From Methanobacteriota archaeon (GTDB taxonomy: Archaea; Thermoplasmatota; Thermoplasmata; UBA10834): a stretch of DNA of 64,000 nucleotides. The stretch covers positions 449,210 through 513,209 of the forward strand of contig CP070748.1 in assembly GCA_020348345.1 (NCBI GenBank), given 5' to 3'. A program made the position numbers and the translations under genes. Under the pieces are notes generated by a model. The model was not told the origin of the DNA, made no database searches, and worked only from the letters and a program-made list of their open reading frames with translations. Below are positions 29,872 through 60,511 of the stretch, in pieces (the first letter of the stretch is position 1; each line of letters begins with the position of its first letter).

Positions 29872-29894
29872 CGGTTGTTTGTATGCACAGCCCC

Positions 29895-39768: not shown

Positions 39769-39846
39769 TTGGTGAGTCCTCTCATGCCGCTTCAACCTTA
39801 AGAAAAATATGTTGTCGAGGGGTGTAACCCCTCTTGTCTAAACCGA

Positions 39847-42384: not shown

Positions 42385-42385
42385 C

Positions 42386-42769: not shown

Positions 42770-42771
42770 CT

Positions 42772-43233
42772 TCAGTCACCACCTCTGACAGGGGACGGGC
42801 CCAGCTCGTTGACAACGTCCGTGAACTCCACTATCGTCTTCTGGAACCTCTCCCCCTCGCCGGCGGATATCCACTCGAGCTTCAATCGTCCAGGATCGAA
42901 GCCGAACTGCTGAAGCAGTATCCTCAGGAGAGCGATCCTCCTGCGAGTCCTGTAGTTACCTCCGATGTAGTGACAGTCCGCCGGATGGCACCCAGCGACC
43001 AGCACTCCGTCCGCGCCCTTCTGGAACGCTCTCAGAACGAACTCCGGGTCCACTCTCGCGGAGCACATGACCCTGATCACCCTGAAGTGAGGGGGCATCT
43101 GTAATCTGCTTACGCCTGCCAGGTCCGCGCCCGCGTATGAACACCAGTTGCAGCAGAATACGAGGATCCTTGGTTCGAAATCCTCCTGTTCCAACTTGTG
43201 CTCGCCTCCTGCATTTGGGGTCGCACTGCTCAT
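42772..43233 (-). CDS. mvhD: MvhD-like [2Fe-2S] electron-transfer subunit
   Basis: [15 protein letters not shown]...CSARV...[17 protein letters not shown] signature. Confidence 0.85.
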   Translation of the reverse strand: MSSATPNAGGEHKLEQEDFEPRILVFCCNWCSYAGADLAGVSRLQMPPHFRVIRVMCSARVDPEFVLRAFQKGADGVLVAGCHPADCHYIGGNYRTRRRIALLRILLQQFGFDPGRLKLEWISAGEGERFQKTIVEFTDVVNELGPSPVRGGD

Positions 43234-46200
43234 TGCTTCACCTCCTGCTTTCCGAGGAGCCCCTCAAGCGCCGCATCGATCATAGCCACGATCTGCTCGT
43301 CTTTGAATCCCTTCTGTGTCAACGCACCTGACGGGCACGCGCCCACGCACGCGCCACAGCCCTTGCACAGGCCCACGTTGACATCTACGAGCTTCTTAGT
43401 CTCGTCCTTCTTGTCGACGATGATCTCGAGCGCCTTGTATTCGCATGTCGGGACGCAGATGCCGCAGCCGTCGCAGAGAGTCTCATCCAAACTCGCCACT
43501 ATGCCTTCGGCTTCAAGAGTCTTCTTGGACAGTACCGTCATCGCGCGCGCAACGGCGGCGAGACCCTGCCCGATGCTCTCATCGAGGAATTTGGGTCCGT
43601 GCGACAGGCCTGCCAGATAAACCCCCTCCGTCGCGAAGTCGACTGGCCTCAGCTTCATGTGCGCCTCGAGGAAGAAGCCCTCCTTGGTCATCGGGACCTT
43701 GAGCATCGGCGCGAGCGCCTCCGACTCCGGATAGGGCCGTGTGCCCGATGCGAGCACGAGGTAATCGGAGGTCAGGACGACCTCCTTGTCCGTGTCCTCA
43801 TCGGTGACCGTAACCTGCAGCTTGCCTCCCTTGTCCTCGACCTTCGGCTTGACGTCGTCCTCGAACCTGATGAACGTCACGCCCTTCTCGGCCGCGTCCT
43901 TATAGTAGGCCTCTCTGAAACCGTAGGTCCGGATGTCCCTGTAGAGAACGTACACCTTCGCCTCGGGGTTCTTCTCCTTTACCTTGATCGCCGCGGTCAT
44001 CGTTCCTGTGCAGCAGACACGCGAACAGTTCGGATGTCCCTCTTCTCTGGAGCCAACACACTGGATGAACACGTACGAATCGCCCTTGGCCTCGTCCTTC
44101 TTGAGCTTCTCCTTGAACTCGAGAAGTGTGAGCACGTTGGGGTTCTCGCCATAGAGATACTCTCCCTCCGGCTTGTACTCCTGACCGCCCACTGCCAGTA
44201 TAACGACGCCGTGCTCGATCTCCTCTCCGCTGTCGAGCGCGGTCTTGAAGTTCCCCACGTATCCGTCTATATTCTTCACTCCGGTGCCGGTGTGCACGGT
44301 GATGTTGTCGTTCGACATGACCTCCTTGGCCAGCGCATCCGCATGCTCTGTCGGGTCCTCGCCGGACGGCAGATAGTGTAGCTTGCGCAAGTTGCCTCCG
44401 AGCTCCTTCTCCTTCTCGACCAGATGCACCTTCACTCCCTGCTTCGCCATCTCGAGCGCGGCGATCATCCCGGTAGCGCCTCCACCTATTACCAGAGCCT
44501 GTTGGTTCACATCGATGGTCAGGTTCTCCAGTGGCTCCAGCAGCCGGGCCTTCGCCACAGCCATTCGAACCAGGTCCTTCGCCTTCTTCGTGGCAGCCGG
44601 CGCCTCGTGCATGTGGATCCATGAGCACTGGTCCCGTATGTTCGCCATCTCGAACAGATACGAGTTCAGGCCCGCCTCCTTGATGGTGTTCTGGAAGAGC
44701 GGCTCATGCGTCCGGGGCGTGCAGCTCGCCACGACGACCCGGTTGAGCTCGTGCTCCTTGATCATCTCCTTTATCTTCTCCTGGGTATCCTGCGAGCAGG
44801 TGTACAGATTCTCCTCGGCGTATGCGACGTTCGGGAGCGTCCTGGCGTACTCGGCGACTGATGGAACGTTCACCACGCCTCCGATGTTTATGCCGCAGTG
44901 ACATACAAAGACGCCTATGCGAGGCTCCTGGCCCGTTATGTCCAGCTCCTCAGGGTATTCCTTCATGGTGACCAGGCTGTCCCTTGCGGAGGCTATCTCG
45001 GTGGCGGCCTTTGCCGCAGCGCCACTCGCCTCGGCGACGGTCATCGGGATGTCCTTGGGAGATGAGAACGCTCCGCTGACGAAGACGCCCTGCTTGGAAG
45101 AGCTGACCGGGTCGAATACCGTGGTCCGGCAGAAACCGTCCGTGTTCAGATCGAAGCCCATGACCTTGCTCAGAGCCTCCGCGTCCTGCGGCGGCTTCAG
45201 TCCAACGGCGAGAACCACCAGGCCGAATTCCTCCTCCTTCGGTTCGCCCTTCTCGACATACTTGACGACCAGGTTCTTCGTCTCTGGATCCTCGAAGACG
45301 GATGCGACCCTCGAACGCACAAACTCTATGCCGTACTCGTTCTGCGCCCTGTTGTAGTACTCGTCAAACTCCTTGCCAAACGCCCTCATGTCCATGAAGA
45401 ACACCTTGGGCTTGATGTCTCCTCCATGCTCCTTGGCGATTATCGCTTCCTTGATCGAGTACATGCAGCAGACGCCCGAGCAGTACTCGTTTCCGACCTG
45501 CTCGTCCCTCGAGCCCACGCACTGTATGAACGCGATCTTCTCGGGTATGTCTCCATCCGAAGGGCGCAATACGGTGCCGAAGTAGGGCCCCGTGGCGCTG
45601 AGCATCCTCTCGAACTCGATGCTGGTCACGACGTTCTTGTAGACGCCGTATCCGTATTCTCCCTTCATGCGAGCGTCGAACTCGTCGAAGCCTGGAGACA
45701 GTATGATGGAACCCACCTTGATCTCCGAGGTGCTCTCCTCCTGATCGTATACGACCGCCTTGGCCTTGCACTCCTCCGCGCAGATGCCGCAGCCGATGCA
45801 CTTGTCCTTGTCGATGGAGTACACCAGAGGAACCGCCTGCGGGTAGCGGACGTATATCGCCTTGCGAACCTTCGTGTTCTCGTTGTACTCGTCAGAGGTC
45901 TCGATCGGGCAAGTCTGTGCGCACGAACCGCAGCCCGTGCACTTCGCTGGGTCTACCCTCAACGCCCTCTGCTTGACAGTGACGGTGAAATCGCCCGCCT
46001 GGCCGTCCACTGACATGATGTCCGCGTTCGTGACCAGGCTTATGTTGTGGTGTCTTCCCGTCGACACGAGCTTCGGCGCCATGATGCACATCGCACAGTC
46101 GTTCGTCGGGAAGGTCTTGTCCAACTGGGCCATCGTGCCTCCTATGCTGGGCTGCTTCTCGACGAGATATACCTTGAATCCGGAGTCGGCTAGGTCAAGG

Positions 46201-46271
46201 GCGGATTGCAGGCCTGATATCCCTCCTCCGACCACCATGACTGCGCCAACCTTGTCAGTAGCTGCCATCAC
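43230..46271 (-). CDS. hdrA: Extended heterodisulfide-reductase subunit A homolog (about 1013 aa) with an extra N-terminal FAD/NAD(P)-binding module
   Basis: The N-terminal part (VMVVGGGISGLQSALDLA...TFPTNDCAMCI) precedes a complete canonical HdrA. That core contains [30 protein letters not shown] and C-terminal ferredoxin CDGCGIC/CKGCGAC. Confidence 0.85.
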   Translation of the reverse strand: MMAATDKVGAVMVVGGGISGLQSALDLADSGFKVYLVEKQPSIGGTMAQLDKTFPTNDCAMCIMAPKLVSTGRHHNISLVTNADIMSVDGQAGDFTVTVKQRALRVDPAKCTGCGSCAQTCPIETSDEYNENTKVRKAIYVRYPQAVPLVYSIDKDKCIGCGICAEECKAKAVVYDQEESTSEIKVGSIILSPGFDEFDARMKGEYGYGVYKNVVTSIEFERMLSATGPYFGTVLRPSDGDIPEKIAFIQCVGSRDEQVGNEYCSGVCCMYSIKEAIIAKEHGGDIKPKVFFMDMRAFGKEFDEYYNRAQNEYGIEFVRSRVASVFEDPETKNLVVKYVEKGEPKEEEFGLVVLAVGLKPPQDAEALSKVMGFDLNTDGFCRTTVFDPVSSSKQGVFVSGAFSSPKDIPMTVAEASGAAAKAATEIASARDSLVTMKEYPEELDITGQEPRIGVFVCHCGINIGGVVNVPSVAEYARTLPNVAYAEENLYTCSQDTQEKIKEMIKEHELNRVVVASCTPRTHEPLFQNTIKEAGLNSYLFEMANIRDQCSWIHMHEAPAATKKAKDLVRMAVAKARLLEPLENLTIDVNQQALVIGGGATGMIAALEMAKQGVKVHLVEKEKELGGNLRKLHYLPSGEDPTEHADALAKEVMSNDNITVHTGTGVKNIDGYVGNFKTALDSGEEIEHGVVILAVGGQEYKPEGEYLYGENPNVLTLLEFKEKLKKDEAKGDSYVFIQCVGSREEGHPNCSRVCCTGTMTAAIKVKEKNPEAKVYVLYRDIRTYGFREAYYKDAAEKGVTFIRFEDDVKPKVEDKGGKLQVTVTDEDTDKEVVLTSDYLVLASGTRPYPESEALAPMLKVPMTKEGFFLEAHMKLRPVDFATEGVYLAGLSHGPKFLDESIGQGLAAVARAMTVLSKKTLEAEGIVASLDETLCDGCGICVPTCEYKALEIIVDKKDETKKLVDVNVGLCKGCGACVGACPSGALTQKGFKDEQIVAMIDAALEGLLGKQEVKQ

Positions 46272-47092
46272 TGCTCACCCCCAATTGCGATGGTCTTGTA
46301 GACCGGAGTGAATCCCTCCGGGTGCTCCATCGCGATCTTGCTGTTCTGCCTAAGCAGAACGATGTGTCTGAGTATCTTGTCGGTAGGGACGTCCATGACC
46401 ATGCCCAACTGCTTGACCGACATCGGCCGTATCCTCGCGAGTTCAAGTATGAGCGCCCTCTCGAACTCGTCCTGGGTAGCCACGTCTATTACGCCAGTCA
46501 GCTTCTCAGCGTCCACCTCCTCACCGTACGCGTTCCCTTTTGAGAGAAGATTGAACTCCTTGCCGACCAGAGCCTTCAGCCTGAATGTCTGGGAAGCGTC
46601 GTCGGCGGCGGAGACCTTCGCCTTCATCATGTCGTCCGAACGCACCTTGCTGGGTCCCAGCTTCTGTATCCCCTCCGTGAACTCAGTGACCACCTTGGAG
46701 AACTTCTCGCCTTCGGATGCAGAGACCCATTCGAGCCTCAGCCTGCCTTCGTCAATCCCCGCCTCCTTGAGGAGCCTCTTCATGAGTTCCACGCGCTTCT
46801 CGGTGTGGAAGTTGCCTGTCATGTAGTGGCAGTCGTTGAGGTGGCAGCCTCCGATGAGTATCCCGTCGGCACCCGCCTCAAAGACGTCGAGCACCAGGTG
46901 CGGGCTCACTCTCGTGGAGCACATGACCCTGACGAGACGTATGTTCGTCGGATACTGGAATCTGCTTACTCCACATAGGTCCGCGCCGGCGTACGAGCAC
47001 CAGTTGCATAGGAAGCCGACAATCTTCGGCTCCCACTCCTTGTCCGGCTCGTGCTTCTTGCCGTGATGAGCGGTGTGATGCTTTTGCGCCAT
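46268..47092 (-). CDS. MvhD fused to a C-terminal wHTH-like domain
   Basis: MvhD signature ([15 protein letters not shown]...GGCHLNDCHY) over about 140 aa, then a roughly 130 aa domain (LARIRPMSVKQLGMVMDVPTDKILRHIVLLRQNSKI) homologous to ORF 42386..42769. Confidence 0.8.
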   Translation of the reverse strand: MAQKHHTAHHGKKHEPDKEWEPKIVGFLCNWCSYAGADLCGVSRFQYPTNIRLVRVMCSTRVSPHLVLDVFEAGADGILIGGCHLNDCHYMTGNFHTEKRVELMKRLLKEAGIDEGRLRLEWVSASEGEKFSKVVTEFTEGIQKLGPSKVRSDDMMKAKVSAADDASQTFRLKALVGKEFNLLSKGNAYGEEVDAEKLTGVIDVATQDEFERALILELARIRPMSVKQLGMVMDVPTDKILRHIVLLRQNSKIAMEHPEGFTPVYKTIAIGGEQ

Positions 47093-47095
47093 CTA

Positions 47096-48973
47096 TCACA
47101 CCTCCTCCAAGGCCGCTTTGGCCTCCGCAAGCAGCTGCTGGTCGGTGTAATGCGTCATTGTGATCGCCCCCTCCGGGCATGTGGCGCCGCAGCAACCGCA
47201 GCCCTTGCACGCGGCGACGATAACCTCGCTGATGCCATCGTCGTTCTTTCTCAGAGCGCCGTACGGGCACACCTCGACGCATGTTCCGCAGCCGGTACAT
47301 TTCGTCTCATCGACTCTCGATGTGAGAGCCTCGGCCTGAACGTAACCGTTCGCGAGAGGTATCGCCGCTCTTGAGGCAGCGGCCGAAGCCTGGGATGCCG
47401 CCTCTGCGATGTCCGCCGGTCCTCTGCAGGTTCCGCACACATAGACGCCGTCCGTCGCGAAGTCGACCGGTCTCAGCTTGACATGTGCCTCCTGGAAGAA
47501 GCCGTCCTGGCCCAATGGCACCTTGAGCAGCTGGGACAGAGTGGCGGCGTCTGGCTGTGACACGAGCGGGGTAGAGAGTATGACCATATCAACCGGCATG
47601 GTCCTCTCCATCTTCAGCGTCTCGTGGAAATATCCAACCTCGAGCTTCCCGTCCTTCGTTGATACCTTCGGGAGGTTGTCCGGCAAGTATCTGATGAACT
47701 TGACCCTCTTTTCTCTGGCCTTGTTGAACTCCAGCTCGTGTTCGACGCCATACGCCATCACGTCCCTGTTGAACACCGTGATCTCCACTCCGCTGGATGG
47801 GGCACCGCCTTCGTCGGCAGCCTCGTCGGCCTCTCGCCTGCCTCTGCCGCGTCTCCTTCGCCTCCTCTCAAGTCCCTCATCCTCCGCCTTCATCTCGGCA
47901 GCAGGTTCCTCGACGACCTGGCCGGCTTCCGCCTCTGCCTTCTCCTCGGTCGCGCCGAGCATGTTGTCTCGGTTCTCAGCTATGTTGATCGCCGTCTTGA
48001 TTGCGACATTGCAGCAGATCCTGGAGCAGTACGAGACCTTCTGTCCTCTTGCTCCAGCGCATTGTATGAAAGCGACGCTCTTCAGCTTGGGAATCTCCTT
48101 CTTGTTGCAGAGTTCCTCGAATTCCATGGACGTGACGACGTTCGGATGTTCCTTGTAACCGAACAGGCCCTCCGGTACCAGCGGGATCGCGCCCGTGGCA
48201 ACGATGATGGCGCCCACCTTGACCTCCTTGGACTCAGATCCTTCTGTGCCTATGGAGACATCGTAATTCCCTATGAATCCCTCCACGGTCGCAACGTGCG
48301 AGTTGACGTACTGTGTGATGTTCTTCTGGGCGTTCACCTTGTCGATGAGTGGCTGAATGGCCTCGTTTGCGCTCTTCTTCGTCATCATCAGACCGTGCAG
48401 GTTCTTCACAAATCCTCCGAGTTCCTTCTCCTTCTCGACCAGATGCACGGGGAATCCCATGTTAGCGAGCGAAAGCGCTGCCGTCATTCCGGCAACTCCG
48501 CCTCCGACGACGAGAGCGGCAGGCGTAACATCGATCTTCGTCTCCTCCTGAGGCTCCAGGAATCGAGCCCTCGCCACGCCCATCCTTACCAGGTCCTTGG
48601 CCTTCTGGGTCGCCTTCTCCTTCTCCTTCATGTGAACCCATGAACAGTGCTCACGTATGTTGACGAAAGTGAACATGTACTTGTTTACGCCAGCAGCCTC
48701 GCACGTGCGCTGGAATAGCGGGGCATGAGTCCGCGGTGTGCAGCTCGAGACCACCACTCTGTCCAGGTTGTGCTCTTTGATGCTCTCCTTGATGTTATTG
48801 AGGCCGTCCTCGGCACATGTGTAGAGGTTGTCTGTGGCGTACACGACGTCCGGAAGGGTCGACGCGTACTCGGTCACGGCCTTGACATCGACGAATCCGC
48901 CTATGTTCGAGCCGCAGTGGCAGATGAATACTCCGATCCGTGGCTTCTTCTCAATGTTTGTGTCTTCGGGCAT
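47096..48973 (-). CDS. Divergent HdrA-like flavoprotein with an Arg/Glu-rich low-complexity insertion
   Basis: PRIGVFICHCGSNIGG N-domain and LVVGGGVAGMTAA FAD motif, but GGFVKNLHG replaces [16 protein letters not shown]; insertion AEAEAGQVVEEPAAEMKAEDEGLERRRRRRGRGRREADEAADEGG; C-terminal 2x[4Fe-4S] ferredoxin. Confidence 0.7.
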   Translation of the reverse strand: MPEDTNIEKKPRIGVFICHCGSNIGGFVDVKAVTEYASTLPDVVYATDNLYTCAEDGLNNIKESIKEHNLDRVVVSSCTPRTHAPLFQRTCEAAGVNKYMFTFVNIREHCSWVHMKEKEKATQKAKDLVRMGVARARFLEPQEETKIDVTPAALVVGGGVAGMTAALSLANMGFPVHLVEKEKELGGFVKNLHGLMMTKKSANEAIQPLIDKVNAQKNITQYVNSHVATVEGFIGNYDVSIGTEGSESKEVKVGAIIVATGAIPLVPEGLFGYKEHPNVVTSMEFEELCNKKEIPKLKSVAFIQCAGARGQKVSYCSRICCNVAIKTAINIAENRDNMLGATEEKAEAEAGQVVEEPAAEMKAEDEGLERRRRRRGRGRREADEAADEGGAPSSGVEITVFNRDVMAYGVEHELEFNKAREKRVKFIRYLPDNLPKVSTKDGKLEVGYFHETLKMERTMPVDMVILSTPLVSQPDAATLSQLLKVPLGQDGFFQEAHVKLRPVDFATDGVYVCGTCRGPADIAEAASQASAAASRAAIPLANGYVQAEALTSRVDETKCTGCGTCVEVCPYGALRKNDDGISEVIVAACKGCGCCGATCPEGAITMTHYTDQQLLAEAKAALEEV

Positions 48974-48979
48974 GTCTGT

Positions 48980-51685
48980 TCACCCCCCTCCTGAATTCGC
49001 GAGGATCTCCGCCGCCTTGGCAGCTGCGCTTGATCCCTGGGCAACGGATTCCGGTATGTCTGCAGGTCCCGCGCAGTACCCAGCAAGATAGACTCCAGGC
49101 ACCTCGCTTCTGCCGAAGTCCAGGATGCTATCGGGGGACTCGAAGAATCCGAACTCAGTCAGCTTCAGCCCGAGCTCCTCGGCCAGCTCGACCGTGTCCT
49201 TCCTTGGGACGAGCGTAGTCGCGAGGACGACCGCGTCGAACTCCTCCGACTGCTGTTTTCCTCCGATATCGAACACGACGACAGGATTGTGCGTTTCAGC
49301 GTTCTCCTGGACGGTCGCGTCGGAGTTGATGTAGCTGACTCCATAATCGCTCTTCGCCCTCTCGACGTACTCGTTGAATCCTTTCGCGCAGGCCCGCATG
49401 TCCTTGTAGAATATCGTCGAATTGATGTCCTCATAGTGCTCTCTGGCGAGCATAGCCTCCTTCGTTGCGTGCATGCAACATACCGCGCAGCAATACGGGT
49501 GCCCAACCTGTGGGTTTCTGGATCCGACGCACTGTATGAACGCCAGCTTCTTCGGATGCTCTCCATCGGACCGTCTGACGATGTGTCCTCCAGTCGGTCC
49601 AGCAGCGTTGATCATGCGCTCATATTCCATAGCTGTGTAGACGTTCGGGTACTTCTTGTAGCCGTACTCCGAGGCGGATGTCGGATCCCATACGTCGAAT
49701 CCTGTTGCGACTATGATTGCCGCAGGGTTCAGCGCCACGGTCTGGTCCTTCATGTTGTAGTCGATGGCGTCCGGTCCGCACGCAGGCGCGCACGCCTCAC
49801 ACTGGGAGCACGGTCCGCAGCTGACGCATCGAGCCGCCTCCTTCAGAGCTTCCTCCTTCGTGAAGATCTTCTCGACCTCTTCGAAAGAGGTTCTGCGCTT
49901 GTCGTCAGGAAGGTGCTGCCTCAGAATCCGTTCGCTCTTCGTAATCTCTCCCTTCATTCTCGCTTTGATGTCCTCAAGGGTGATGACATGCTCGTCCTTT
50001 TCCTCTGGCACCGGCTCGATGCTCTCGCCGTTCAGCATCTTCTCGATGTACAGCGCAGCTTTGTTGCCAGCGCCGAACGCCTCCACAGCCGACGCTGGTC
50101 CCGAAACAGCATCTCCGCCGGCAAATACGCCCTCTACGTTAGTGCTGAGGTTACCCGCGTTCACTTCAAGGGTATTCCATTTCGTAACGGCGAGGTTCTT
50201 TGAGCCCAGAGTGTCAAGATCTGGTGCCTGGCTTACCGCAGGTATGACCGTGTCTACTTCAACCTTGAATTCCGACCCCTCGACAGGCACGGGCCGTGGC
50301 CTGCCGGATTTGTCAGGTTCGCCGAGCTTCATTCGAATGCATTCAATGGATGCGATCTTGCCGTCCTTCCCCTCGATCTTCACCGGCGAAGCGAGGAACT
50401 CGAACTTGACGCCTTCATCTTCCGCGCCCTTTATCTCAGCTGAGATGGCCGGCATCTCGTCCCTGGTTCGGCGGTATATCACTGTTACATCTGAGCCCAT
50501 CCGCAAGGCGGTCCTCGCAGCGTCCATAGCCGCGTTGCCACCGCCTATGACTGCTACCTTTTTGCCGATCTTGACCTGCTCCTTGTCGGCAACTTTGTGA
50601 AGGAAATCCACCCCATGGACGACCCCTTCCAGGTCTTCTCCAGGCACGTCCAGTTTGAGACTCCTGTGAGCTCCTATTGCCAGGAAGACGGCGTCGTATT
50701 CCTTCTTCAGATCATCTAGCGACATGTCCTTGCCAATGGTCTTGCCATACTCGATTTCTATGCCATGCGCAAGCAGGAAGTCGACCTCCGCTTTGAGCAC
50801 GTCTTTTGGAAGGCGATAATCGGGAATACCCCACCAGAGCATCCCACCGGGCTTCGAAGTCGCTTCGAAGATCTTGACTTTAAAACCTTTGAGAGCGAGT
50901 CGGAAGGCCGCTGCCAAACCGGCTGGGCCAGCTCCAACGACCGCCACCTTCTCCTTCCGATCCTCCTCGATCGTGGCCGGCACATCTTCGCCCTGCTCGC
51001 GAACGTAGTCTCCCACGAATGCCTTCAATCCAGCAATGGCCACGGGGTCGTCGACGTCATTTCTGTTGCAGCCCTCTTCACACGGGTGATGGCAAATGCG
51101 TCCACACACGGAGGGTAGGGGTATTGTCCTCCGTATAAGATTCACTGCTTCCTTGAACTTCTCGGCTCGTATGAGCGCCACATATCCCTGCGCGCTCAGC
51201 CCGGCCGGACATTTGTCAGAGCATGGCGCCACACCGGCTCTGTCAATCGTCGCCGCCCTTGGAACTGACTGAAGGAACGGCATGTAGATGGCAGGCCTTT
51301 CCCTCATGTCCATGTCGAACTCATTTGGAAGGCTGACAGGGCAGACCTTGAAACAGTCGCCGCAGCCAGTGCACTTCTCCTCGTCGACGAACCTGGCCTT
51401 CCGGAGCACGTCAACCTTGAAATCCCCAGCCTCCCCGGAGATATTCTTGACCTCCGAGTAGGTCATGACGTTGATGTTGGGGTGCGCGTAGCAGTCCGCC
51501 ATCTTCGGCGCCAGGATGCATATCGAGCAATCGTTCGTAGGGAAAGTCTTGTCCAGCTGTGCCATTCTTCCGCCGATGCTGGGCAGCTTCTCGACCAGGT
51601 CGACCGTGATTCCCTTGTCGGCTAGGTCCAAAGCAGCCTGTATTCCGGCAATTCCGCCTCCGATAACCAATACGGATTTCTTCAA
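48980..51685 (-). CDS. HdrA-like protein with an inserted complete GltD/NfnB-type NAD(P)H:FAD oxidoreductase module (HdrL-like)
   Basis: HdrA FAD motif ([18 protein letters not shown]...[11 protein letters not shown]). GltD signatures: VCGRICHHPCEEGC, VAVVGAGPAGLAAA, WGIPDYRLPK, VAVIGGGNAAMDAA, VFAGGD. C-terminal HdrA segments ([23 protein letters not shown]). TTG start with a GGGGG SD. Confidence 0.8.
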   Translation of the reverse strand: MKKSVLVIGGGIAGIQAALDLADKGITVDLVEKLPSIGGRMAQLDKTFPTNDCSICILAPKMADCYAHPNINVMTYSEVKNISGEAGDFKVDVLRKARFVDEEKCTGCGDCFKVCPVSLPNEFDMDMRERPAIYMPFLQSVPRAATIDRAGVAPCSDKCPAGLSAQGYVALIRAEKFKEAVNLIRRTIPLPSVCGRICHHPCEEGCNRNDVDDPVAIAGLKAFVGDYVREQGEDVPATIEEDRKEKVAVVGAGPAGLAAAFRLALKGFKVKIFEATSKPGGMLWWGIPDYRLPKDVLKAEVDFLLAHGIEIEYGKTIGKDMSLDDLKKEYDAVFLAIGAHRSLKLDVPGEDLEGVVHGVDFLHKVADKEQVKIGKKVAVIGGGNAAMDAARTALRMGSDVTVIYRRTRDEMPAISAEIKGAEDEGVKFEFLASPVKIEGKDGKIASIECIRMKLGEPDKSGRPRPVPVEGSEFKVEVDTVIPAVSQAPDLDTLGSKNLAVTKWNTLEVNAGNLSTNVEGVFAGGDAVSGPASAVEAFGAGNKAALYIEKMLNGESIEPVPEEKDEHVITLEDIKARMKGEITKSERILRQHLPDDKRRTSFEEVEKIFTKEEALKEAARCVSCGPCSQCEACAPACGPDAIDYNMKDQTVALNPAAIIVATGFDVWDPTSASEYGYKKYPNVYTAMEYERMINAAGPTGGHIVRRSDGEHPKKLAFIQCVGSRNPQVGHPYCCAVCCMHATKEAMLAREHYEDINSTIFYKDMRACAKGFNEYVERAKSDYGVSYINSDATVQENAETHNPVVVFDIGGKQQSEEFDAVVLATTLVPRKDTVELAEELGLKLTEFGFFESPDSILDFGRSEVPGVYLAGYCAGPADIPESVAQGSSAAAKAAEILANSGGG

Positions 51686-51846: not shown

Positions 51847-53442
51847 TCATTCCAACGCCTCCGCAATCGCCACGCTGAGGTCCTTGATCTTGATGTCCAC
51901 CTGCTCCTTCGGTATCCCTTCGAGCTTGTTGTCTCGAGCGCAAGCCAGATGAATCAGGCACTTGTAACATCCCGTGACAAGGCAGTCCGCTCCCGTCTTC
52001 TTGGCCTCCTTAAGCCTCTCCACCTGCAGCTTGCGCGCGATATCGTCACACGTTGCCCAGGAGCTTACCCCGCAGCAGGTTGCCTTGTCCTTCGTGTTCT
52101 CCATCTCCACTACGTCGGCTCCGAAGCCCTTCATGGCGTTCCTGGGCGAGTCGTAGATCCCCAGGTGTCTGCCCAGTCGGCAAGAGTCCTGGAAGGTCAG
52201 CTTGTCGGCACCTTTCTTGAACTTCAGTTTTCCATCCTGGATCAGGTCGTCCACGAACTCGGATACGTGGGTCATCTCGAATTCGAAGTCACCCATAAAG
52301 TCCTGATAGTCCATGTCGAAGGTTCTCATGCATTCAGGGCAGGAGAACACGACGGTCTTCGCTCCGGAGGCCTTGATGAGCTCTACATTCCTCTTCATCA
52401 GCTTCTGCAGCCCCTCCTCGTCGCCAGTCCAGTTGAGATCATGCCCGCAGCACACCTCATCGTTGCTGACAACAGGGGTTATGCCTGCACTGTTCATTAT
52501 CTTGACCACAGACTGAGGTATGCCAGCGAGGTTGAGCTCTCTGTCGCGGAAGATAGCATCGAAATACGACACGCATCCAGTGAAGTAGAAGACATCACCC
52601 TTGTCCGCCACCTTCAACTCTGGTGTGAGCCATCCCAGTCTGTCTTGCTTGAAATCTCCGTGTGCCTGGAATCGCATCATTCCCTGCAGGAGTCCACCCT
52701 GACTGCATGCGGGCGTTGCCTCGTTGGCCGCCGCCTCGGTCCTCAATCCTCTGATGAAGCCAGAGTAGTCCACTTTGTACGGGCACATCGAGTTGCACTG
52801 TTCACATGTTATGCAGGTCCAGATATCGTTGCTGGCAACGATGGAATCGGCCTGTCCTTCCGTCGCCTTCAGCACAATCGTTCTGGGGGCGAACTCGGGG
52901 TTGTACTTGGCAACGGGACATACGGTCGTGCACTTGCCGCACTCGACGCAGTCGAAAGCCCCAGTGTCCTCGACGAGGCGATCGACGCTGGGCTTGAGTT
53001 TGGCGGGATCGTAGGTCTTCTTCGGAAGCTTTGGTATCGGGTTGGGGCCTAGCTCTCGTATGCTATCCGTGAATTCCTTCATCGTCGAGGCGAACTTCTG
53101 ACCCTCCGAGGCGGAGATCCATTCCAATCTCATACGGGCCCTGCCTATGCCGACCACGTCCAGCAGGTCCTGTGTGGCCTTCATTCTCTTTTCCGCTTCG
53201 ACGTTTCCGGATATGTAATGACAGTCACCTATGTGGCATCCAGCCACGAGTACGCCATCCGCACCCAGCTCGAGCGCCCTCAGAACAAAGTACGGCTCCA
53301 CCCTTCCAGAGCACATCACCCGGATGATGCGCGCGTTTGGAGGATACTGCATTCTGCTGACCCCTGCCAAGTCCGCGCCGGCGTACGAGCACCAGTTGCA
53401 GCAGAAGGCTACGATGTTCGGCTCGAATTTCTCGCCAGTCAT
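51847..53442 (-). CDS. MvhD-HdrC-HdrB tripartite fusion protein
   Basis: N-terminal MvhD ([15 protein letters not shown]...[10 protein letters not shown]), middle 2x[4Fe-4S] HdrC-like ([12 protein letters not shown] ... [12 protein letters not shown]), C-terminal HdrB CCG-domain pattern (CCGHDLN ... CCGVSSW). The start overlaps the hdrA stop (ATGA); the ORF track extends further 5' inside hdrA. Confidence 0.8.
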
Positions 53443-56400
53443 GTTTTCACCTCCTGCTCGGGCTCCTCGTCTGCAAGTGCCGCCTCTATCATCGTGATGA
53501 TCTGGTCGGATCTGAAGTGCTTCGGTCGAATGGCTCTCGTACAACACTCGACCGCGCATGAGCCGCAGCCTTTGCAGAGAGCCTCCTTGATTCGCGATTT
53601 GAACACTCCGGGCGAGATCTCCTCCACGACCGGGGCTCCGTATTCACAGATGTCCTCGCACCTTCCGCAACCGATGCATTTGTCCTCATCCACGACGCTG
53701 ACGACGCCTTCGGCCTCGATGAACGGCCTTGACAGCACTGTGTTCACTCTGGCTGCTGCCGCGAGCGCCTGCGATATGCTCTCATCGATCAGTCTCGGTG
53801 AGTGGGCGAGACCGCAGAGGAAGATTCCATCGGTGGCAAAATCAACAGGCCTCAGTTTCATATGAGCTTCGAGGAAGAAGCCCTCCCTGTTCTGGGGTAT
53901 CTTCAGAAGCTGCGCCAGATCCTTATTGTCTGGGTTAGGATGGACCGCCGCGTTCAGAACCAGATAGTCAGGTTTGAGTGCAATTCTCTCCTCGATGAAC
54001 TTCTCGTCAATATCTATCTCGAGATCGTCTCCGTTTGCTTTCACTTTCGGAGGCGACTCTGGGTCGAACCTGAGGAACCTGACTCCGAGGCGCGCAGCTT
54101 CGTTGTAGTTCTCCTCAGCGAACCCATAGGTACGTATGTCTCTGAACAGCACGAACACCTCAGTTTCGGGGTGCTCTCTCTTGATCTTCAGAGCGTTAGC
54201 CATCGCGGTTGAGCAACAGATGCGGGAGCAGTTTGGGTGCTCGTCGTTCCTTGATCCCACGCATTGGATGATCACGACGCTTCTGGCGTCAAACTCGCCG
54301 CTGGCAAGCATCTTCCCCAGATCGGTTTGTCTGATGACCTTCGGGTGTTTGCCATACAGGTACTCCTCGGGCTCGTATTCTATAGCTCCAGTCGCCACTA
54401 CGATCGCGCCGTGTTCTATCTTCTCCCCGCTCTTAAGAGTGGTTTCGAAGTTGCCTATGTATCCCTTGACCTCTTCGACGGTATCTTCCAGATGCACTTT
54501 GATCTTCTCGTGTTCCCGAACTTCCTTCTTCAGGCTGGCAAGCGTTTCCCGGGGGTCAACGCCAGAAAGGGTGCTGAATATCGTCCTCAGATGTCCACCC
54601 AGCTCCTTGTCCTTCTCGACCAGGTGAACCTCGTATCCTGCTTTGGCAATCTCTAGTGCGGAGGTCATCCCGCTGAGCCCTCCTCCAATGACCAACGCGG
54701 CGGGTGTGACCGGTATCTTGGGTTGTGGCAACGGTTCAAGTTTGCTCGATTTGGCCACCGCCATCCTCACCAGGTCCTTCGCCTTCTTAGTTGCCGCCTC
54801 GGGTTCCATCCGGTGAACCCAAGAGCACTGGTCTCGTATGTTCGCCATCTCGAACAGGTACTTGTTCAGACCAGCCTCCCTCACCGTGTTCTGAAACAAC
54901 GGCTCGTGCGTCCGCGGTGTGCAGCTCGCGACGACCACTCTGTTGAGATCATGCTCTTCGATTATCTCCTTGATCTTCTTCTGGGTGTCCTGGGAGCAAG
55001 TGTAGAGATTGGCCTCTGCGTAGACCACGCCGGGAAGGCTTGATGCGTACTTCATTACCTCAGGCACGTTGACGACCGCGCCGATATTGATGCCGCAATG
55101 ACAGACGAACACGCCTATGCGAGGCTCCTGACCTTCCAGATTCTTCTCCTCGGGGTATTCCTTCTTGGTGACCAGCTTTCCTCTCTGATCGGCCAGCAAC
55201 GCCGCAACCTTGCCCGCTGCGCCGCTTGCCTGGGCCACTGAGTCGGGGATGTCCTTCGGGCCCGAGAACGCTCCGCAGACGTAGATGCCAGGCGAAGTGC
55301 AGTCGACCGGTGACAGCTCATCAGTCTCACAGAAGCCGTAGCTGTTCATCTTGATACCCAGCATCTTGGCAAGCTGACGTGCCATCTCAGGAGGCTTCGC
55401 GCCGGCAGACAGAACAACCATGTCGAAGGATTCCTCGCTTATGTCAGCATCGTCTATGAAGCTGAGCAAGAGATCGTCGGTTTCATGACTCTGCTGAACC
55501 TTCGATATTCGGTTGTTCCTAAGAATTCTGACACCGTACTCAGTCTCCGCCCGATGAAGGTACTCTTCGAATTCCTTCCCGAACGCGCGCGTATCCATGA
55601 AGAACATGGTCGTTTTGAGTCCAGGCACGTGTTCCTGGGCTATCACAGCCTGTTTGAGGGCTGCCATGCAGCAATACGAAGAGCAGTAAGTGTTCGGTGT
55701 CTGCGCGTCTCGTGAGCCGACGCATTGAATGAACGCTATCTTCTGTGGAACGTCGCCATCCGATGGGCGGATCACATGCCCCTCCGTAGGTCCAGAGGCG
55801 CTCAACATTCGCTCGAACTCTATGTTGCTTACCACATTAGGGTAGACGCCATGGCCGTATGCGTTCTTCTTTGACGCATCGAAGACCTCATAGCCAGTGG
55901 CGAGGATGATCGCTCCGACCTCTATGGTCTCGTCGACCGTCGAGTCCATGCTGTATTCGATTGCGCCGGCCTCGCAGAACTTCTCGCATATGCCACAGCC
56001 GATACAGAGGCCCTTGTCAATCGTGTATATCAAGGGCACTGCCTGAGGAAAGGGGACATAGACCGCCTTTGCAGGTGCGAGATCTCTGTCGAATGAGTTG
56101 GCGCCTTCGATAGGACAGTGTTCCGCGCACACACCGCAGCCAGTGCACTTCTCCTCGACTATGAAGCGCTGGTGCCTTGTGATTGTGACATTGAACTTGC
56201 CCGCCTCTCCTTCTACATTCTTCAGTTCGGCGTTGGTGATGAGGGTGATGTTCTCGTGCCTGCCCGTTGCCACAAGCTTCGGGGACAGAATGCACATGGA
56301 ACAGTCGTTCGTCGGAAAGGTCTTGTCCAGCTGCGCCATCGTTCCGCCGATGCTCGGCGTGGTCTCCAATAGATAGACTTTGTATCCTGATTCCGCGAGG

Positions 56401-56474
56401 TCCAATGCGGCCTGCATGCCCGCTGGTCCTCCTCCCACGACCAGGGCCGCGCCGACGAGTTCGTTATCCGCCAT
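53439..56474 (-). CDS. hdrA: Extended HdrA homolog (about 1011 aa), close paralog of 43230..46271
   Basis: Same architecture as 43230..46271; the central region is roughly 85% identical at the protein level, with near-identical nucleotide stretches. Confidence 0.85.
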
Positions 56475-56476: not shown

Positions 56477-56920
56477 TTATGCACTCTCCTCAGCAATAGG
56501 GCCCAGCGTCTGTAGTTCAGCGACCATCTTCTTCACGACGTCGGCGAACTTCTGACCCTCCGAGCCCGCAATCCATTCCACTCTGAACCTCTGCGGCTCC
56601 AGGCCCGCATCCTCAAGGAACTCCGAAAGAAAGATCCCCCTCATGGCCGTCTTCTCATTGCCGTTGATGTAGTGACAGTCAGAGGGATGACATCCGGCGA
56701 CGATGACGCCGTCTGCCCCCAGCGAGAACGCCTTGAGAACAAATGCCGGATCGACTCTCCCGGAGCACATGACCCTGATGATTCTGACGTTTGCAGGATA
56801 CTGAAGCCTCGTCGTACCTGCTAAATCCGCACCAGCATATGAACACCAATTGCAGCAGAAGGCTACGATTTTCGGCTCAAAGGCGGGGTGCTCCATCTCC
56901 GGGTTCGTCCCCTCTTCCAT
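56477..56920 (-). CDS. mvhD: MvhD-like [2Fe-2S] subunit
   Basis: [15 protein letters not shown]...AGCHPSDCHY. The ORF track's N-terminal extension overlaps hdrB in another frame; the true start is the Met just after the hdrB stop. Confidence 0.85.
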   Translation of the reverse strand: MEEGTNPEMEHPAFEPKIVAFCCNWCSYAGADLAGTTRLQYPANVRIIRVMCSGRVDPAFVLKAFSLGADGVIVAGCHPSDCHYINGNEKTAMRGIFLSEFLEDAGLEPQRFRVEWIAGSEGQKFADVVKKMVAELQTLGPIAEESA

Positions 56921-56922
56921 GG

Positions 56923-57840
56923 CTAGGTCCCCCTGAGCTTCCTGAGGAATGAGTGTGCTGATACGTGATGAGTGTCGAAGCCCAGAGAGATCGGATCGAT
57001 CCCCATTGCCAGGGCCTGGAACTGCGAGACATGCATCACCGGAATCCCTTCCTTTGTGAAGGACTTCTGCGCGTTGTCGAACTGAAGGAGGCAGAACGGG
57101 CAGCCTGTGACGATGCAGTCGGCCCCCGCGTCGGCTATGTTCCTGCACTTGTCCTCGGTGAGCGAATTGGCCAAGTCCACAACGTGGGACCGCACGCCCC
57201 CGCCCGCTCCGCAACAGTCCAATCGATCCTCGTACTCGACGCTCGTTGCGCCACATGTCTCGACGATCTTGTCGATGTTGACGGGGTCGTTGGGGTCGTC
57301 GATGGTTTGGTTCTCGGTAGGTCTTAGGTAATGGCAGCCGTAGTGCACGGCAGCTCTTATGTTCTTGAGAGGACGTTTCGCGTGTTCGGCGATGCTCTCC
57401 AGGCCGACGTCGTTGATCATGAGGTCTACGTAATGCCGCACCTTCACCGGCTCCATTATGCGCCGCCGCCCCTCAGTCTTCCTCGGAATGCCGGTGTACT
57501 TCCTGCCTATCTGAGAGAGAACTCTGTTCACCTTGCCGAGATTCTTCGGATCCGTGAGGTATTCGGTCGCCTTCAGGAGGGACGTAAGGCAGCCGTTGCA
57601 GACGGTGAGGATCTCCCTCCGCTCGTTCTGGGCGAGCGTCAGATTGCGAGCCGCCAGAAGGAGCCATGTGTTCTTGTCGGACGAGTAGAAGATGCCAGGT
57701 ACAGGACAGCAAGAGAACTCCTTGATGTCCTCAACGTCCAGGTTGAACCCGTCGCTTCCGCAGACCCATCTCACGGCATATTCGATGCCTGGATACCTGT
57801 TTGGTATTATGCATCCGAAGAAATACGCGTACTGGCTCAA
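56923..57840 (-). CDS. hdrB: Heterodisulfide reductase subunit B
   Basis: Two CCG domains (FSCCPVPG ... LDCCGAGGG); HdrB-like length. Confidence 0.9.
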   Translation of the reverse strand: MSQYAYFFGCIIPNRYPGIEYAVRWVCGSDGFNLDVEDIKEFSCCPVPGIFYSSDKNTWLLLAARNLTLAQNERREILTVCNGCLTSLLKATEYLTDPKNLGKVNRVLSQIGRKYTGIPRKTEGRRRIMEPVKVRHYVDLMINDVGLESIAEHAKRPLKNIRAAVHYGCHYLRPTENQTIDDPNDPVNIDKIVETCGATSVEYEDRLDCCGAGGGVRSHVVDLANSLTEDKCRNIADAGADCIVTGCPFCLLQFDNAQKSFTKEGIPVMHVSQFQALAMGIDPISLGFDTHHVSAHSFLRKLRGT

Positions 57841-58415
57841 GTCTTCACCTCGCTCTCAATACCGATGAGCTTATCGTAGCCCGTCGAGCGCACGAGCAGA
57901 TTGATCTCCCGCACAACCTTCGCGTATTCCTTGTCGCGCGAGGGCATGTCCACAAGCTCGAGCTCCCTCCTGACTCGCTCGATTTCAGGATCGGGCTTTA
58001 CGCTCTGACCGTACTTGAGCAGGTTCGATGCGGCCATCTTTATGAACGGAGGTATGACTCCCTCCTTGATCGCGATGTGTCTCAGCGCTATCATCACCTC
58101 AGCAGGGTTGATGTCCGCGGGACAGTGTTCGTAACATCTGTAGCACGTGGCGCAGACCCATCGAGTTTCAAGCGTGAACTTCTTCAGCCCGAACTGGCAG
58201 AACTTGATGATACTCCTGGTCTTGTAATCGATCTTGAGGCTTATCGGACACACGCCGGTGCAATTGCCGCACTGAAGGCATGTCATCACATCCTTGCCTC
58301 CATGCTTCACAATCTCCTTGGCGAAATCCGGTTCCAGCTGAGATTCATCAATGACTCTGTCTTCAACCAGCTTCTCGCGCAGACCGCTGATGAAGGTCTT
58401 CTCCACCTCTCCCAT
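57837..58415 (-). CDS. hdrC: Heterodisulfide reductase subunit C
   Basis: 2x[4Fe-4S] (CLQCGNCTGVCP ... CATCYRCYEHCP). Confidence 0.9.
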   Translation of the reverse strand: MGEVEKTFISGLREKLVEDRVIDESQLEPDFAKEIVKHGGKDVMTCLQCGNCTGVCPISLKIDYKTRSIIKFCQFGLKKFTLETRWVCATCYRCYEHCPADINPAEVMIALRHIAIKEGVIPPFIKMAASNLLKYGQSVKPDPEIERVRRELELVDMPSRDKEYAKVVREINLLVRSTGYDKLIGIESEVKT

Positions 58416-58417: not shown

Positions 58418-60511
58418 TCAGGCCTCCTCCGCCTTCTTCGCGGGCTTCCTCGCCTTGCCGTTAGTCCCCTCCATACCCCCCAGGGCGGAGACTATCTCGG
58501 AGGCTATCTGTTCGTCGGTGAATTGGTTCGCTGTGATGGCCTTCTGCGGACACGCCGCAACGCATGTACCACATCCGTGACATAGCGCTTCCACAACCTT
58601 CGCCTTCGTTCCATTGTCTGTCTCAACGATCTCGGGGGCGCCATACGGACACATCTCAACACAAAGGCCACATCCGATGCAGAGTTCCTCATTGATGGAA
58701 GCGGTGAGTGGCTCGATCTTGACCTTCTTGCCAGCCATGATGGATGCTGCTGACGCCGCCGCTGCCTTAGCCTGAGCGACGGAATCGGGTATGTCCTTGG
58801 GGCCCTGGGCGCATCCAGCGAGGTAGATGCCGTCAACAGCCGTGTCGACCGGCCTTAGCTTCGGGTGTGCCTCCTGGAAGAAGCCGTCCGGGCTTAGGGA
58901 TAAGGAGAGTATCTTACCGATCCTCTTGCTGCCCTCCGACGGTTGAAGTCCCGTGGAAAGGACGATCAGGTCGAACTCCCTTTCTGTTATCTTGTTCAGC
59001 AACGTCTCCTCGGCCCTAATCGTGATGGAGTTCGTCTCGGAATCCTCGCTCAGCTTCGCCGGCCGTCCTCGTATGAACTCGATGCCATACTCCTCTCTGA
59101 CACGATGATACAGCTCTTCGAAGCCCTTCCCGAACGCCCTGATGTCATTGTAGTAGACCGCGATTTCGGTGTCGGGTTCGTGCTCCTTGATGATTTGGGC
59201 GTTTTTCATCGAGTACATGCAGCAGACGCGAGAGCAGTAGTCGTTGCCTATCTTCTTGTTCCTCGAGCCGACGCATTGGATGAAGGCGACCCTCTTGGGG
59301 CTCTCGCCGTCGGACGGCCTTATCAGATGTCCTCCCGTCGGACCCGAGGCGTTCAGCAGCCGTTCGAGCTCCAAACCTGTGATGACATTCTGATATTCCC
59401 AGTATTTGTATACGCCGCGTTTCATCGGGACATAGATGTCGAAGCCAGTAGCGCATATTATCGTGCCGACCTTCAGCTCGACCATTTCGTCCTCCATCTC
59501 ATGGTCGATTGCCTCGTTGGCGCATGCCTTCAGACAGGCCTTGCACTTCCCGGTTTTGAAATGGATGCAGTTATCCTTGTCGATCGTGTATTTCAGCGGC
59601 ACCGCTTGAGGAAACGGCACATAGATCGCCTTCCTCTTCCCGAAACCCATATCGAACTTGTTGTCGACTTTGACTGGGCAAGCATCGGCGCAGACTCCGC
59701 ACCCCACACACTTGTCCTCCACTACGTATCTAGCCTTTCTTCTGACCTTGACACTGTAATTGCCAATGAATCCGCTGACGTCCTCCACCTCCGAGTAGGA
59801 TAGGAGCGTTATGTTGGGGTGTCTGGCCAGTTCCACCATCTTGGGCGCCAGAATACATATTGCGCAATCCCCTGTGGGAAAAGTCTTGTCGAGCTGAGCC
59901 ATGCGTCCTCCGATGCTCGGCTCCGACTCCACGACGAATACCTTGAACCCCATCTGGGCCAGATCAAGGGCGGCCTGGATACCTGCGACTCCTCCGCCGA
60001 TCACAAGAGAGGATTGCTCGACCGGCACCTCTCTGGCCTCGAGCGGAACCAGCTTCTCGGCCTTGGCGATACCCATCCTGACGAGGTCTACGGCCTTCTC
60101 TGTAGCCCTGTCCTTCTCCTTGGAATGGACCCATGAGCATTGCTCTCGCACATTCACCATCTGAAGCATATACGGGTTGAGGCCGGCCTCCTGGATGCAG
60201 CTCCTGAAGGTGGGCTCGTGCATCCGGGGCGAGCACGCTGCAACGACAACCCTGTTCACATCGTTCTCCTTGACGGCCTTGATGATCTCTTCTTGACCGA
60301 GGTCGGAGCATGTGTACTTGTTCTCCTTCGCCACGACAACGCCCGGAACCTTCTCGGCCGCTTCCCTGACCTTGGAAACATCAACAGTGCCTGCAATGTT
60401 GCTGCCGCAGTGACAAACAAAAACTCCGATTCTGGGCGTCATCGAATCCTTTGCAGGCGGCGTCTTCGGTCCTTCCGGGGCTCTCTCTTCGAGTGGTTCG
60501 GGTGAACTCAT
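58418..60511 (-). CDS. hdrA: Heterodisulfide reductase subunit A (canonical roughly 700 aa architecture)
   Basis: N-domain [19 protein letters not shown] domain [17 protein letters not shown]...[11 protein letters not shown], inserted and C-terminal ferredoxins (CVGCGVC, CIGCGLC, CHGCGTC); SD GGAGGGG. Confidence 0.9.

Follow-up and report, generated by a model that had tools for sequence, protein, structure and literature searches.

A single-chain MvhD-HdrC-HdrB protein encoded next to a fused-dimer HdrA in an archaeal Hdr gene cluster

Architecture of the fusion gene and its product

The stretch of DNA analyzed here comprises 64,000 nucleotides of contig CP070748.1 (assembly GCA_020348345.1, positions 449,210 to 513,209) from a Methanobacteriota archaeon, and this whole stretch is called the window in the following. 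Its minus strand carries a cluster of genes related to heterodisulfide reductase (Hdr) and to the Mvh hydrogenase, one of which is the subject of this work. A first-pass annotation had read from the sequence that this gene codes for MvhD, HdrC-type and HdrB-type modules in one polypeptide. Pfam matches, cysteine motifs and an alignment of 17 homologues bear this out, and the motifs are complete in each module. Gene and product will be referred to simply as the fusion gene and the fusion protein. The gene and the parts of its product are as follows:

51847..53442, minus strand: mvhD-hdrCB fusion gene, 531 amino acids (open reading frame and start codon; Pfam FlpD, Fer4 dicluster and two CCG matches; homologues of the same length)
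53047..53415, minus strand: MvhD/FlpD domain, residues 10-132 (PF02662), with a presumed [2Fe-2S] site at C15, C44, C69 and C74
52954..53046, minus strand: linker, residues 133-163, sequence-variable; in alignments its counterpart in split homologues is the intergenic spacer together with the N-terminus of HdrD
52768..52953, minus strand: HdrC-type ferredoxin domain, residues 164-225, with two CX2CX2CX3CP motifs (Pfam Fer4_17/Fer4_8)
52318..52590, minus strand: CCG domain 1, approximately residues 285-375, with C290, C331, C332, C368 and C371 (Pfam CCG, motif spacing, conservation)
51946..52197, minus strand: CCG domain 2, with C421, C456, C457, C492 and C495 (best stretch of the Pfam CCG match, residues 416-499)

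The program-made list of open reading frames gives a minus-strand frame of 51847..53559 that contains the fusion gene. The start is the ATG at 53442, with GGAGGTG 7 nt upstream, so that the coordinates first proposed for the gene, 51847-53442, are exact. A 570-residue version starting from 53559 was rejected, as it overlaps the 3' end of the upstream HdrA gene, homologues start at the position of the 531-residue form, and the ribosome-binding site stands before the ATG at 53442. This start codon overlaps the TGA stop of the upstream gene, coding for a 1011-residue HdrA, by four nucleotides (ATGA). The same four-nucleotide overlap with the upstream HdrA gene is present in the relative CP070732.1 (locus L001 in our set), and the fusion gene is predicted to be translationally coupled to this fused-dimer HdrA. 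Exact look-up in the assembly collection gave no identical copy of the 531-residue protein.

The three kinds of domain that a profile scan was expected to detect, MvhD, Fer4 and CCG, were all found. The FlpD/MvhD family PF02662 is matched over the full profile (positions 1-123 of 123; E-value 2e-55, 186.3 bits against a cutoff of 22.3), and the Pfam CCG family is matched twice (E-value 8e-24, 84 bits against a cutoff of 20.6). At the level of motifs, CCNWC is read at residue 14, the two CX2CX2CX3CP [4Fe-4S] motifs start at residues 165 and 210, and CCGHDLN and CCGVSSW stand at 331 and 456. The spacing is C290-X40-CC-X35-C368-X2-C371 in the first CCG domain and C421-X34-CC-X34-C492-X2-C495 in the second, giving two complete CCG domains with the full set of ten cysteines. 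HdrD is recognized by a single chain in which two CCG domains (CXnCCXnCX2C) come after two [4Fe-4S] motifs, an order that the fusion protein shares.

Conservation was examined in an alignment of 17 fused homologues with 32-90% identity. C15, C44, C69 and C74 of the MvhD part are invariant (17/17) and are presumed able to bind a [2Fe-2S] cluster. All eight ferredoxin cysteines are likewise invariant, as are C290, C331, C332, C368, C421, C456, C457 and C495 of the CCG domains; the remaining two of the ten CCG cysteines are kept in 15/17 and 16/17 homologues. C465 and C501 are further invariant cysteines around CCG domain 2.

An AlphaFold2 model was built from 53 homologues, with a predicted local distance difference test (pLDDT) score of 81.5 and a predicted template modelling score (pTM) of 0.85. 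The linker is modelled with a pLDDT of approximately 80-90 and a helix at residues 146-160, leaving about 14 residues unstructured. The model was compared with the PDB by Foldseek, with TM-scores normalized to the target. MvhD chains (8rvu_F, 5odc_D, 7bkb_F) were recovered with TM-scores of 0.82-0.87, 2.5 Å root mean square deviation and 56-62% identity, HdrB chains with 0.62-0.66 and HdrC chains with 0.44-0.54. In the PDB sequence search, MvhD chains were found at an E-value of 1e-53 and HdrC chains at 1e-11, and no HdrB chain was matched at E <= 0.001. The C-terminal 370 residues match best the HdrD-like domain of M. smegmatis EtfD (9ojn), with E-values of 1.6e-28 by sequence and 1.3e-14 by Foldseek.

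No NCBIfam model reaches its cutoff on the fusion protein. The models for HdrB (24.2 against a cutoff of 345) and HdrC (51 against 160 and 49 against 350) stay far below it (TIGR03288, TIGR03290, NF041779), and the same direction is seen for TfrB (118 against 385), LdhH (124 against 800), GlpC (74 against 278), GlcF (55 against 333) and DsrK (50 against 400). The best partial matches are LdhH, TfrB and GlpC, ahead of HdrB. The MvhD domain scores 200 bits against the MvhD part of the HdrA2 model.

Continuity of the reading frame and close relatives

About 5.8 billion proteins were searched, giving 6094 relatives at E <= 1e-10. Among the 120 best protein clusters (56-92% identity), which stem from NCBI, JGI, ENA and Logan assemblies, 117 have 530-558 amino acids and the same Pfam architecture; the other three are incomplete. 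The complete 1.97-Mb chromosome CP070732.1, also labelled 'Methanobacteriota archaeon', carries the same 531-residue gene with 90% identity, and the gene order of the window is kept there over the 21.6 kb compared (L001 1-21596). The closest named relative is a Thermoplasmata UBA10834 genome with 84% identity. Within the otherwise variable linker, G132, P133 and P135 are conserved.

The fusion gene is real and intact and no sequencing artefact, because the same length and architecture recur in many independent assemblies including a complete chromosome. The two findings that had been named as fatal to the fusion, a false continuity of the frame and degenerate CCG motifs, are thus both set aside: homologues and CP070732.1 share the continuous frame, and both CCG motifs are complete.

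Gene neighborhood

The fusion gene is the sixth of 14 Hdr/Mvh-related genes in a 21-kb minus-strand cluster (39283-60511), which codes for five HdrA-type proteins (two of them fused dimers and one with a GltD insert), four MvhD domains, an HdrB, an HdrC, the fusion protein, MvhG and MvhA. Besides the fusion gene, the following genes were assigned:

58418..60511, minus strand: hdrA, 697 amino acids, first gene of the cluster, with a 360-nt intergenic region upstream (Pfam)
57837..58415, minus strand: hdrC-like gene, 192 amino acids (Pfam Fer4 dicluster families)
56923..57840, minus strand: hdrB, 305 amino acids, two CCG domains (Pfam CCG, E-value 3.5e-29)
56477..56923, minus strand: stand-alone mvhD, approximately 148 amino acids (Pfam FlpD; 148-residue gene call in L001)
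53439..56474, minus strand: fused-dimer ('type II') HdrA, 1011 amino acids, two FAD/TrxR modules (Pfam), ATGA overlap with the fusion gene
48980..51685, minus strand: HdrA with inserted GltD-type NAD(P)H module ('type III'/HdrL-like), 901 amino acids (Pfam Fer4_20 and Pyr_redox_2)
47096..48973, minus strand: hdrA, 625 amino acids (Pfam)
46268..47092, minus strand: mvhD with C-terminal extension, 274 amino acids (Pfam FlpD at residues 24-146 only)
43230..46271, minus strand: second fused-dimer HdrA, 1013 amino acids (Pfam), 56% identical to the 1011-residue HdrA by blastp
42772..43233, minus strand: mvhD, 153 amino acids (Pfam FlpD)
41368..42384, minus strand: mvhG, [NiFe]-hydrogenase small subunit (Pfam Oxidored_q6)
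39847..41361, minus strand: mvhA, [NiFe]-hydrogenase large subunit (Pfam NiFeSe_Hases)
39283..39795, minus strand: hydrogenase maturation protease (Pfam HycI)

The partner immediately upstream, the 1011-residue HdrA, has an unusual composition. Its residues 9-430 align to residues 145-567 of HdrA, which corresponds to the thioredoxin-reductase-like (TrxR) domain with the inserted ferredoxin domain and without the N-terminal domain. Further on, residues 442-602 align to HdrA 1-155 (N-terminal domain) and residues 855-1002 to HdrA 513-655 (C-terminal ferredoxin domain). By these alignments the protein is a fused dimer with complementary domain loss. Such proteins have been described in the case of HdrA3/4 of anaerobic methanotrophic archaea (ANME), Moorella HdrA and BamE (PMC9012536; 10.64898/2026.04.10.717634), and the fused-dimer HdrA has been classified as 'type II' (PMC12054007).

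The fusion gene had initially been described as half of a compact two-gene Hdr unit with an extended HdrA. It does lie directly downstream of this gene, to which it appears to be coupled, but the two belong to the larger cluster. The junctions upstream of the fusion gene are nearly all overlaps or 2-nt gaps, unlike the junction behind it: a non-coding gap of 161 nt (51686-51846; 160 nt in L001) separates the fusion gene from the gene of the 901-residue HdrA/GltD protein, which scores 557 bits with NCBIfam PRK12771 and 528 bits with HdrA2. No obvious T-rich terminator is present in this gap, which may separate two transcription units. The mvhGA genes belong to the same cluster but adjoin a different mvhD gene than the fusion. 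The four MvhD domains of the cluster are 53-62% identical to each other. At the other end, hypF and hypD, followed by the 360-nt gap, precede the first hdrA.

Among the Pfam-scanned genes between 39.3 and 60.5 kb there is no gene for HdrE, the membrane cytochrome b; apart from one small open reading frame without a match (42363-42815), all code for soluble proteins of the Hdr/Mvh type. The same scan gave no BamBC (tungsten AOR-type) or BamGHI (NuoEFG-like) genes, nor any gene for an electron-transferring flavoprotein (ETF), a DsrC-like protein or a membrane anchor. Elsewhere the window has a housekeeping character (his operon, 2-oxoacid:ferredoxin oxidoreductase, CDC48, an aminoacyl-tRNA synthetase, peptidases) and holds no methanogenesis genes.

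Several other features were recorded in passing. The 274-residue MvhD (46268-47092) carries a C-terminal extension of about 125 residues without Pfam match. The small open reading frame at 42363-42815 (minus strand), situated between mvhD and mvhG, has no Pfam match, and a 127-residue gene call at the same place in L001 (20659-21042) has none either. Two adjacent paralogous genes of the clostripain family (peptidase C11), of 401 and 388 amino acids, lie at 28497-31061 on the minus strand. A hybrid sensor with receiver, PAS, GAF and HATPase domains is encoded at 34134-36137 on the plus strand, a few kb from the Hdr/hydrogenase cluster and hypE. Finally, two consecutive large TPR-repeat proteins of 629 and 868 amino acids are encoded at 7141-11636, also on the plus strand.

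Distribution of fused and split forms

The fusion is not peculiar to this genome and is abundant in sequence databases. Loci were counted among the best 80 of at least 592 relatives (one genome per species) together with L001, giving 81 loci, and were scored as fused or split by reading through TGA codons and mapping stops. About 36 of the 81 loci have a single continuous fused gene, so that the search for the same fusion in related genomes was successful; these include two loci with an in-frame TGA exactly at the position of Cys69 and one with an assembly frameshift. The other 45 or so have separate, adjacent mvhD and hdrD genes, with stops at query positions 134-150. In the case of Methanosarcinales and Methanoperedens, the two genes are split with an ATGA overlap. 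When proteins were clustered at 50% identity, approximately 20 of the best 150 representatives were full-length fusions (32-60% identity), and the others were unfused HdrD-like proteins of 370-400 amino acids or MvhD alone. Source names of fused cluster members include Ca. Alkanophaga, Desulfobacteraceae and Planctomycetota.

Among Thermoplasmata the fusion is fixed in a large clade, and fused forms are also present in Bathyarchaeia, Archaeoglobales, Heimdallarchaeota, Actinomycetota, Chloroflexota and Armatimonadetes, as well as in a large clade of Desulfobacterales to which the cultured strain NaphS2, a degrader of aromatic compounds, belongs. In a rough neighbor-joining tree built from the HdrD part, fused proteins are polyphyletic, with fused clades adjoining split clades several times. 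The fused Thermoplasmata clade of the window stands beside split Methanosarcinales and Methanoperedens, fused Actinomycetota beside split Zixibacteria, and fused Desulfobacterales beside split Syntrophaceae. This repeated adjacency on the tree implies several independent events of fusion or fission. Altogether, these comparisons show mvhD and hdrD to be a conserved pair of adjacent genes, of which the fusion is the joined form.

Among the 80 best loci, the split pairs are in the same frame in 26 cases and in different frames in three. This excess is probably at least in part a ranking bias of tblastn, which extends through a single stop. At seven bacterial loci (L013, L014, L030, L040, L044, L050 and L056) mvhD and hdrD share the frame with only a TGA in the linker, at query positions of about 136-149. 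A different situation is seen in deltaproteobacterial loci (L019 and L034, also L011, L020, L021, L035, L036 and L065), where an in-frame TGA stands at the Cys69 position of the MvhD part. This codon probably specifies selenocysteine in place of a conserved cysteine, a possible ligand of the [2Fe-2S] cluster. Selenocysteine-containing MvhD proteins are described in the D. autotrophicum genome paper, and a selenocysteine, Sec19, is reported in BamF in the preprint on class II benzoyl-CoA reductase (10.64898/2026.04.10.717634).

Conserved partners

To describe the surroundings of the unit, neighbors were counted over the same loci. The mvhD part is fused or adjacent in 79 of the 81. Where enough sequence was available (63 loci), an HdrA-type frame of at least 850 amino acids lies immediately upstream in 54 and any HdrA-like frame in 60; a further HdrA-like gene follows downstream in 50 of 68. 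Within flanks of up to 10 kb, 34 of the 81 loci have a GltD-type NAD(P)H module, which is close to the unit in 30 of them, and only 4 have MvhA. Since HdrA is near-constant, GltD frequent and MvhA rare by these counts, the constant part appears to be a large HdrA with MvhD and an HdrD-type module, and the hydrogenase a lineage-specific addition. The MvhD part had been called an electron-donor adaptor at the outset. The domain is genuine; the implied link to hydrogenase, however, is loose, given 4 loci with MvhA against 34 with a GltD-type module.

Comparison with known systems

Hdr fusions described in the literature consulted are HdrB with HdrC (HdrD), HdrA with MvhD (HdrA2, 'type Ia'), HdrA with HdrA ('type II') and HdrA with GltD ('type III', HdrL). 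The first two had been named by the first-pass annotation as the known cases, in agreement with this literature. A survey of archaeal fusion and fission mentions Hdr fusions 'of more than two subunits', with the MvhD-HdrD fusion unnamed in its text and supplements, and no name or description of an MvhD-HdrD or MvhD-HdrCB fusion was found in the literature searched. We therefore regard it as an unnamed and uncharacterized architecture.

Firstly, residues 160-531 resemble HdrD of HdrDE, itself an HdrC-HdrB fusion, in the order of two CX2CX2CX3CP motifs and two CCG domains, in the ten cysteines and in being soluble. The fusion protein differs in its additional N-terminal MvhD, in the lack of an HdrE cytochrome b partner in the cluster and in its position within an HdrA gene cluster; the fused HdrD form is uncommon in the HdrA gene clusters of methanogens (PMC9012536). 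Secondly, HdrA2 ('type Ia', as in HdrA2B2C2 of M. acetivorans) also has MvhD covalently joined to an Hdr subunit. There, however, MvhD is at the C-terminus of HdrA, whereas here it is N-terminal and joined to the HdrC/B module. Thirdly, comparison with the MvhADG-HdrABC complex from hydrogenotrophic methanogens (PDB 5ODC and related entries) shows 56-62% identity for the MvhD domain and recognizable HdrB- and HdrC-like folds, and mvhGA is found in the same cluster. The differences are that MvhD, C and B are fused here, that HdrA is a fused dimer, that the lineage is probably non-methanogenic and that the hydrogenase genes lie approximately 10 kb from the fusion gene, behind four other genes and the 161-nt gap.

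Further counterparts are the split mvhD-hdrD pairs that ANME, Methanoperedens and Methanosarcinales carry in their type II/III HdrA clusters. These are orthologous, with 48-57% identity over both halves and the same HdrA/GltD and HdrA genes downstream, and differ in that the two halves are separate genes overlapping by ATGA. In ANME and methanogens, clusters that hold 'HdrD' and 'MvhD' beside unusual HdrAs have been reported (PMC12054007, PMC9012536) and represent this split form.

The same three parts are also found in BamDEF of class II benzoyl-CoA reductase, which offers the best structural precedent and is compared here by its published description: a fused-dimer HdrA (BamE), an MvhD-type adaptor (BamF) and an HdrD-like protein (BamD). 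Here MvhD and HdrD form one chain, no BamBC or BamGHI genes are in the cluster, and the cysteines of the distal CCG domain are intact, in contrast to the disrupted distal cluster of most BamD homologues. Strain NaphS2, with its fused homologue, provides a further link to this system. A cryo-electron microscopy preprint (10.64898/2026.04.10.717634) reports that the MvhD-like BamF, which is more than 100 residues longer than usual for an MvhD adaptor and carries extra domains, links the BamGHI input module to BamE and relays towards the flavin adenine dinucleotide (FAD) that performs the bifurcation. According to the same work, cluster E4 in a TrxR domain of BamE connects this FAD to cluster D1 of BamD.

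Proposed role and electron acceptor

Taking domains, neighbors and known systems together, we consider it probable that the 531-residue protein acts as a soluble iron-sulfur subunit with three modules in an HdrA-type complex that carries out flavin-based electron bifurcation (or confurcation). The MvhD half would dock on the HdrA scaffold, and its [2Fe-2S] adaptor would relay mid-potential electrons to or from the bifurcating FAD, between it and a donor module. Two candidate donors are encoded in the same cluster, the MvhGA hydrogenase and the NAD(P)H-binding HdrA/GltD protein, and either or both could act. The HdrC/B part would form the high-potential exit through two cubane and two non-cubane clusters, at the end of which a disulfide, or a protein partner, would be reduced, and ferredoxin would be served by the ferredoxin domain inserted into the N-terminal half of HdrA. 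The covalent fusion would tie two subunits on the same HdrA, as BamF and BamD on BamE, and fix their stoichiometry at 1:1. Such a link is sterically plausible, because BamF and BamD surround the same flavin in BamDEF.

Some points weigh against this proposal. Four MvhD domains, five HdrA-type proteins and a separate HdrBC in the cluster allow more than one pairing of subunits, and the 161-nt gap before the HdrA/GltD gene makes co-transcription with the second half of the cluster and mvhGA less certain. In addition, the absence of mcr and of genes for coenzyme M and coenzyme B synthesis is taken from the paper on the order and not from this genome.

As to the exit arm, there is a modest chance that the HdrD-like half does not reduce a small-molecule disulfide and instead passes electrons to a protein partner or carrier (ETF, DsrC-like or quinone-linked), as in BamD or EtfD. 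The best match of the C-terminal 370 residues to EtfD, in sequence as in fold, points in this direction, as do the partial NCBIfam matches to LdhH, TfrB and GlpC rather than HdrB and the transfer of electrons from BamD to ETF (10.64898/2026.04.10.717634). However, the distal non-cubane cluster of BamD is degenerate and its substrate pocket filled, whereas the fusion protein keeps its ten cysteines, in accordance with two intact non-cubane clusters. Nor was any candidate partner or anchor of this kind among the scanned genes of the cluster. The ten kept CCG cysteines, unlike the situation in most BamD homologues, favor real thiol/disulfide chemistry.

It is doubtful that the fused MvhD is wired to the HdrC clusters of its own chain as a non-bifurcating bypass, running from donor over [2Fe-2S] and cubanes to the non-cubane clusters, instead of to the flavin of HdrA. 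The linker is short, with its roughly 14 unstructured residues, and a pTM of 0.85 for modules of 130 and 370 residues suggests a fixed packing of the two halves in the model; pTM is, however, only an indirect indicator of packing. That a large HdrA is nearly always found beside the unit speaks for a role that depends on HdrA, and the MvhD-like cluster in BamDEF points towards the bifurcating FAD. As a related speculation, which we put forward with little confidence, the recurrent fusion could indicate that the entry adaptor and the high-potential exit arm are immediate neighbors in HdrA complexes of the fused-dimer and GltD-containing types, perhaps directly wired ([2Fe-2S] to HdrC cubane). 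If true, this would provide a switchable non-bifurcating shortcut from donor to disulfide, which the canonical Mvh-Hdr lacks, and the acceptor in non-methanogens would be a novel thiol/disulfide couple.

Still less credible is that the protein is a genuine subunit of a methanogen or methanotroph heterodisulfide reductase, that is, HdrD in the strict sense plus MvhD, acting on the heterodisulfide of coenzymes M and B (CoM-S-S-CoB). Its intact ten CCG cysteines and both cubane motifs would allow this, several homologues are named 'heterodisulfide reductase subunit D' by JGI, and split homologues are found in Methanoperedens and Methanosarcinales genomes. Nevertheless, CoM-S-S-CoB is an unlikely acceptor, because the equivalog scores for HdrB (24 against 345) and HdrC (51 against 160) are far below cutoff, the family is abundant in bacteria, organisms that make no use of coenzymes M and B, and the order UBA10834, the nearest lineage with a name, has been described as non-methanogenic and as possessing hydrogenases and genes of the Wood-Ljungdahl pathway. 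The HdrB chains without sequence match and the lack of an HdrE-like gene among the scanned cluster genes speak against it as well.

Lastly, the notion that separate mvhD and hdrD genes were merged by a mistake in sequencing or assembly was rejected as next to impossible: many relatives are split, often in the same frame with a single linker stop, so that one base error could in principle fuse them, but 117 of the 120 best clusters share length and architecture across NCBI, JGI, ENA and Logan assemblies, the 531-residue gene recurs within the same operon on the complete chromosome CP070732.1, every Thermoplasmata relative in the tree is fused, and the linker is conserved at G132, P133 and P135 and modelled as ordered.

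Significance

Current database names each cover one half of the fusion protein, 'hydrogenase iron-sulfur subunit' at NCBI and 'heterodisulfide reductase subunit D' at JGI, and can lead metabolic reconstructions astray, for instance by suggesting a hydrogenase or a methanogen-type Hdr. To specialists acquainted with BamDEF-type modules and the many Hdr fusions, the joined form will not come as a surprise. HdrA-based bifurcation holds a central place in energy metabolism across methanogens, methane and alkane oxidizers, sulfate reducers, acetogens and degraders of aromatic compounds, and for most 'extra' Hdr clusters the subunit composition and the high-potential acceptor have yet to be defined. 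The fused-dimer HdrA together with the fusion protein would be a simpler, two-protein target for expression and structure determination. The repeated fusion serves as gene-fusion evidence that MvhD and the HdrD-type module share one complex on a large HdrA, and it would thus narrow the wiring models for type II/III HdrA clusters.

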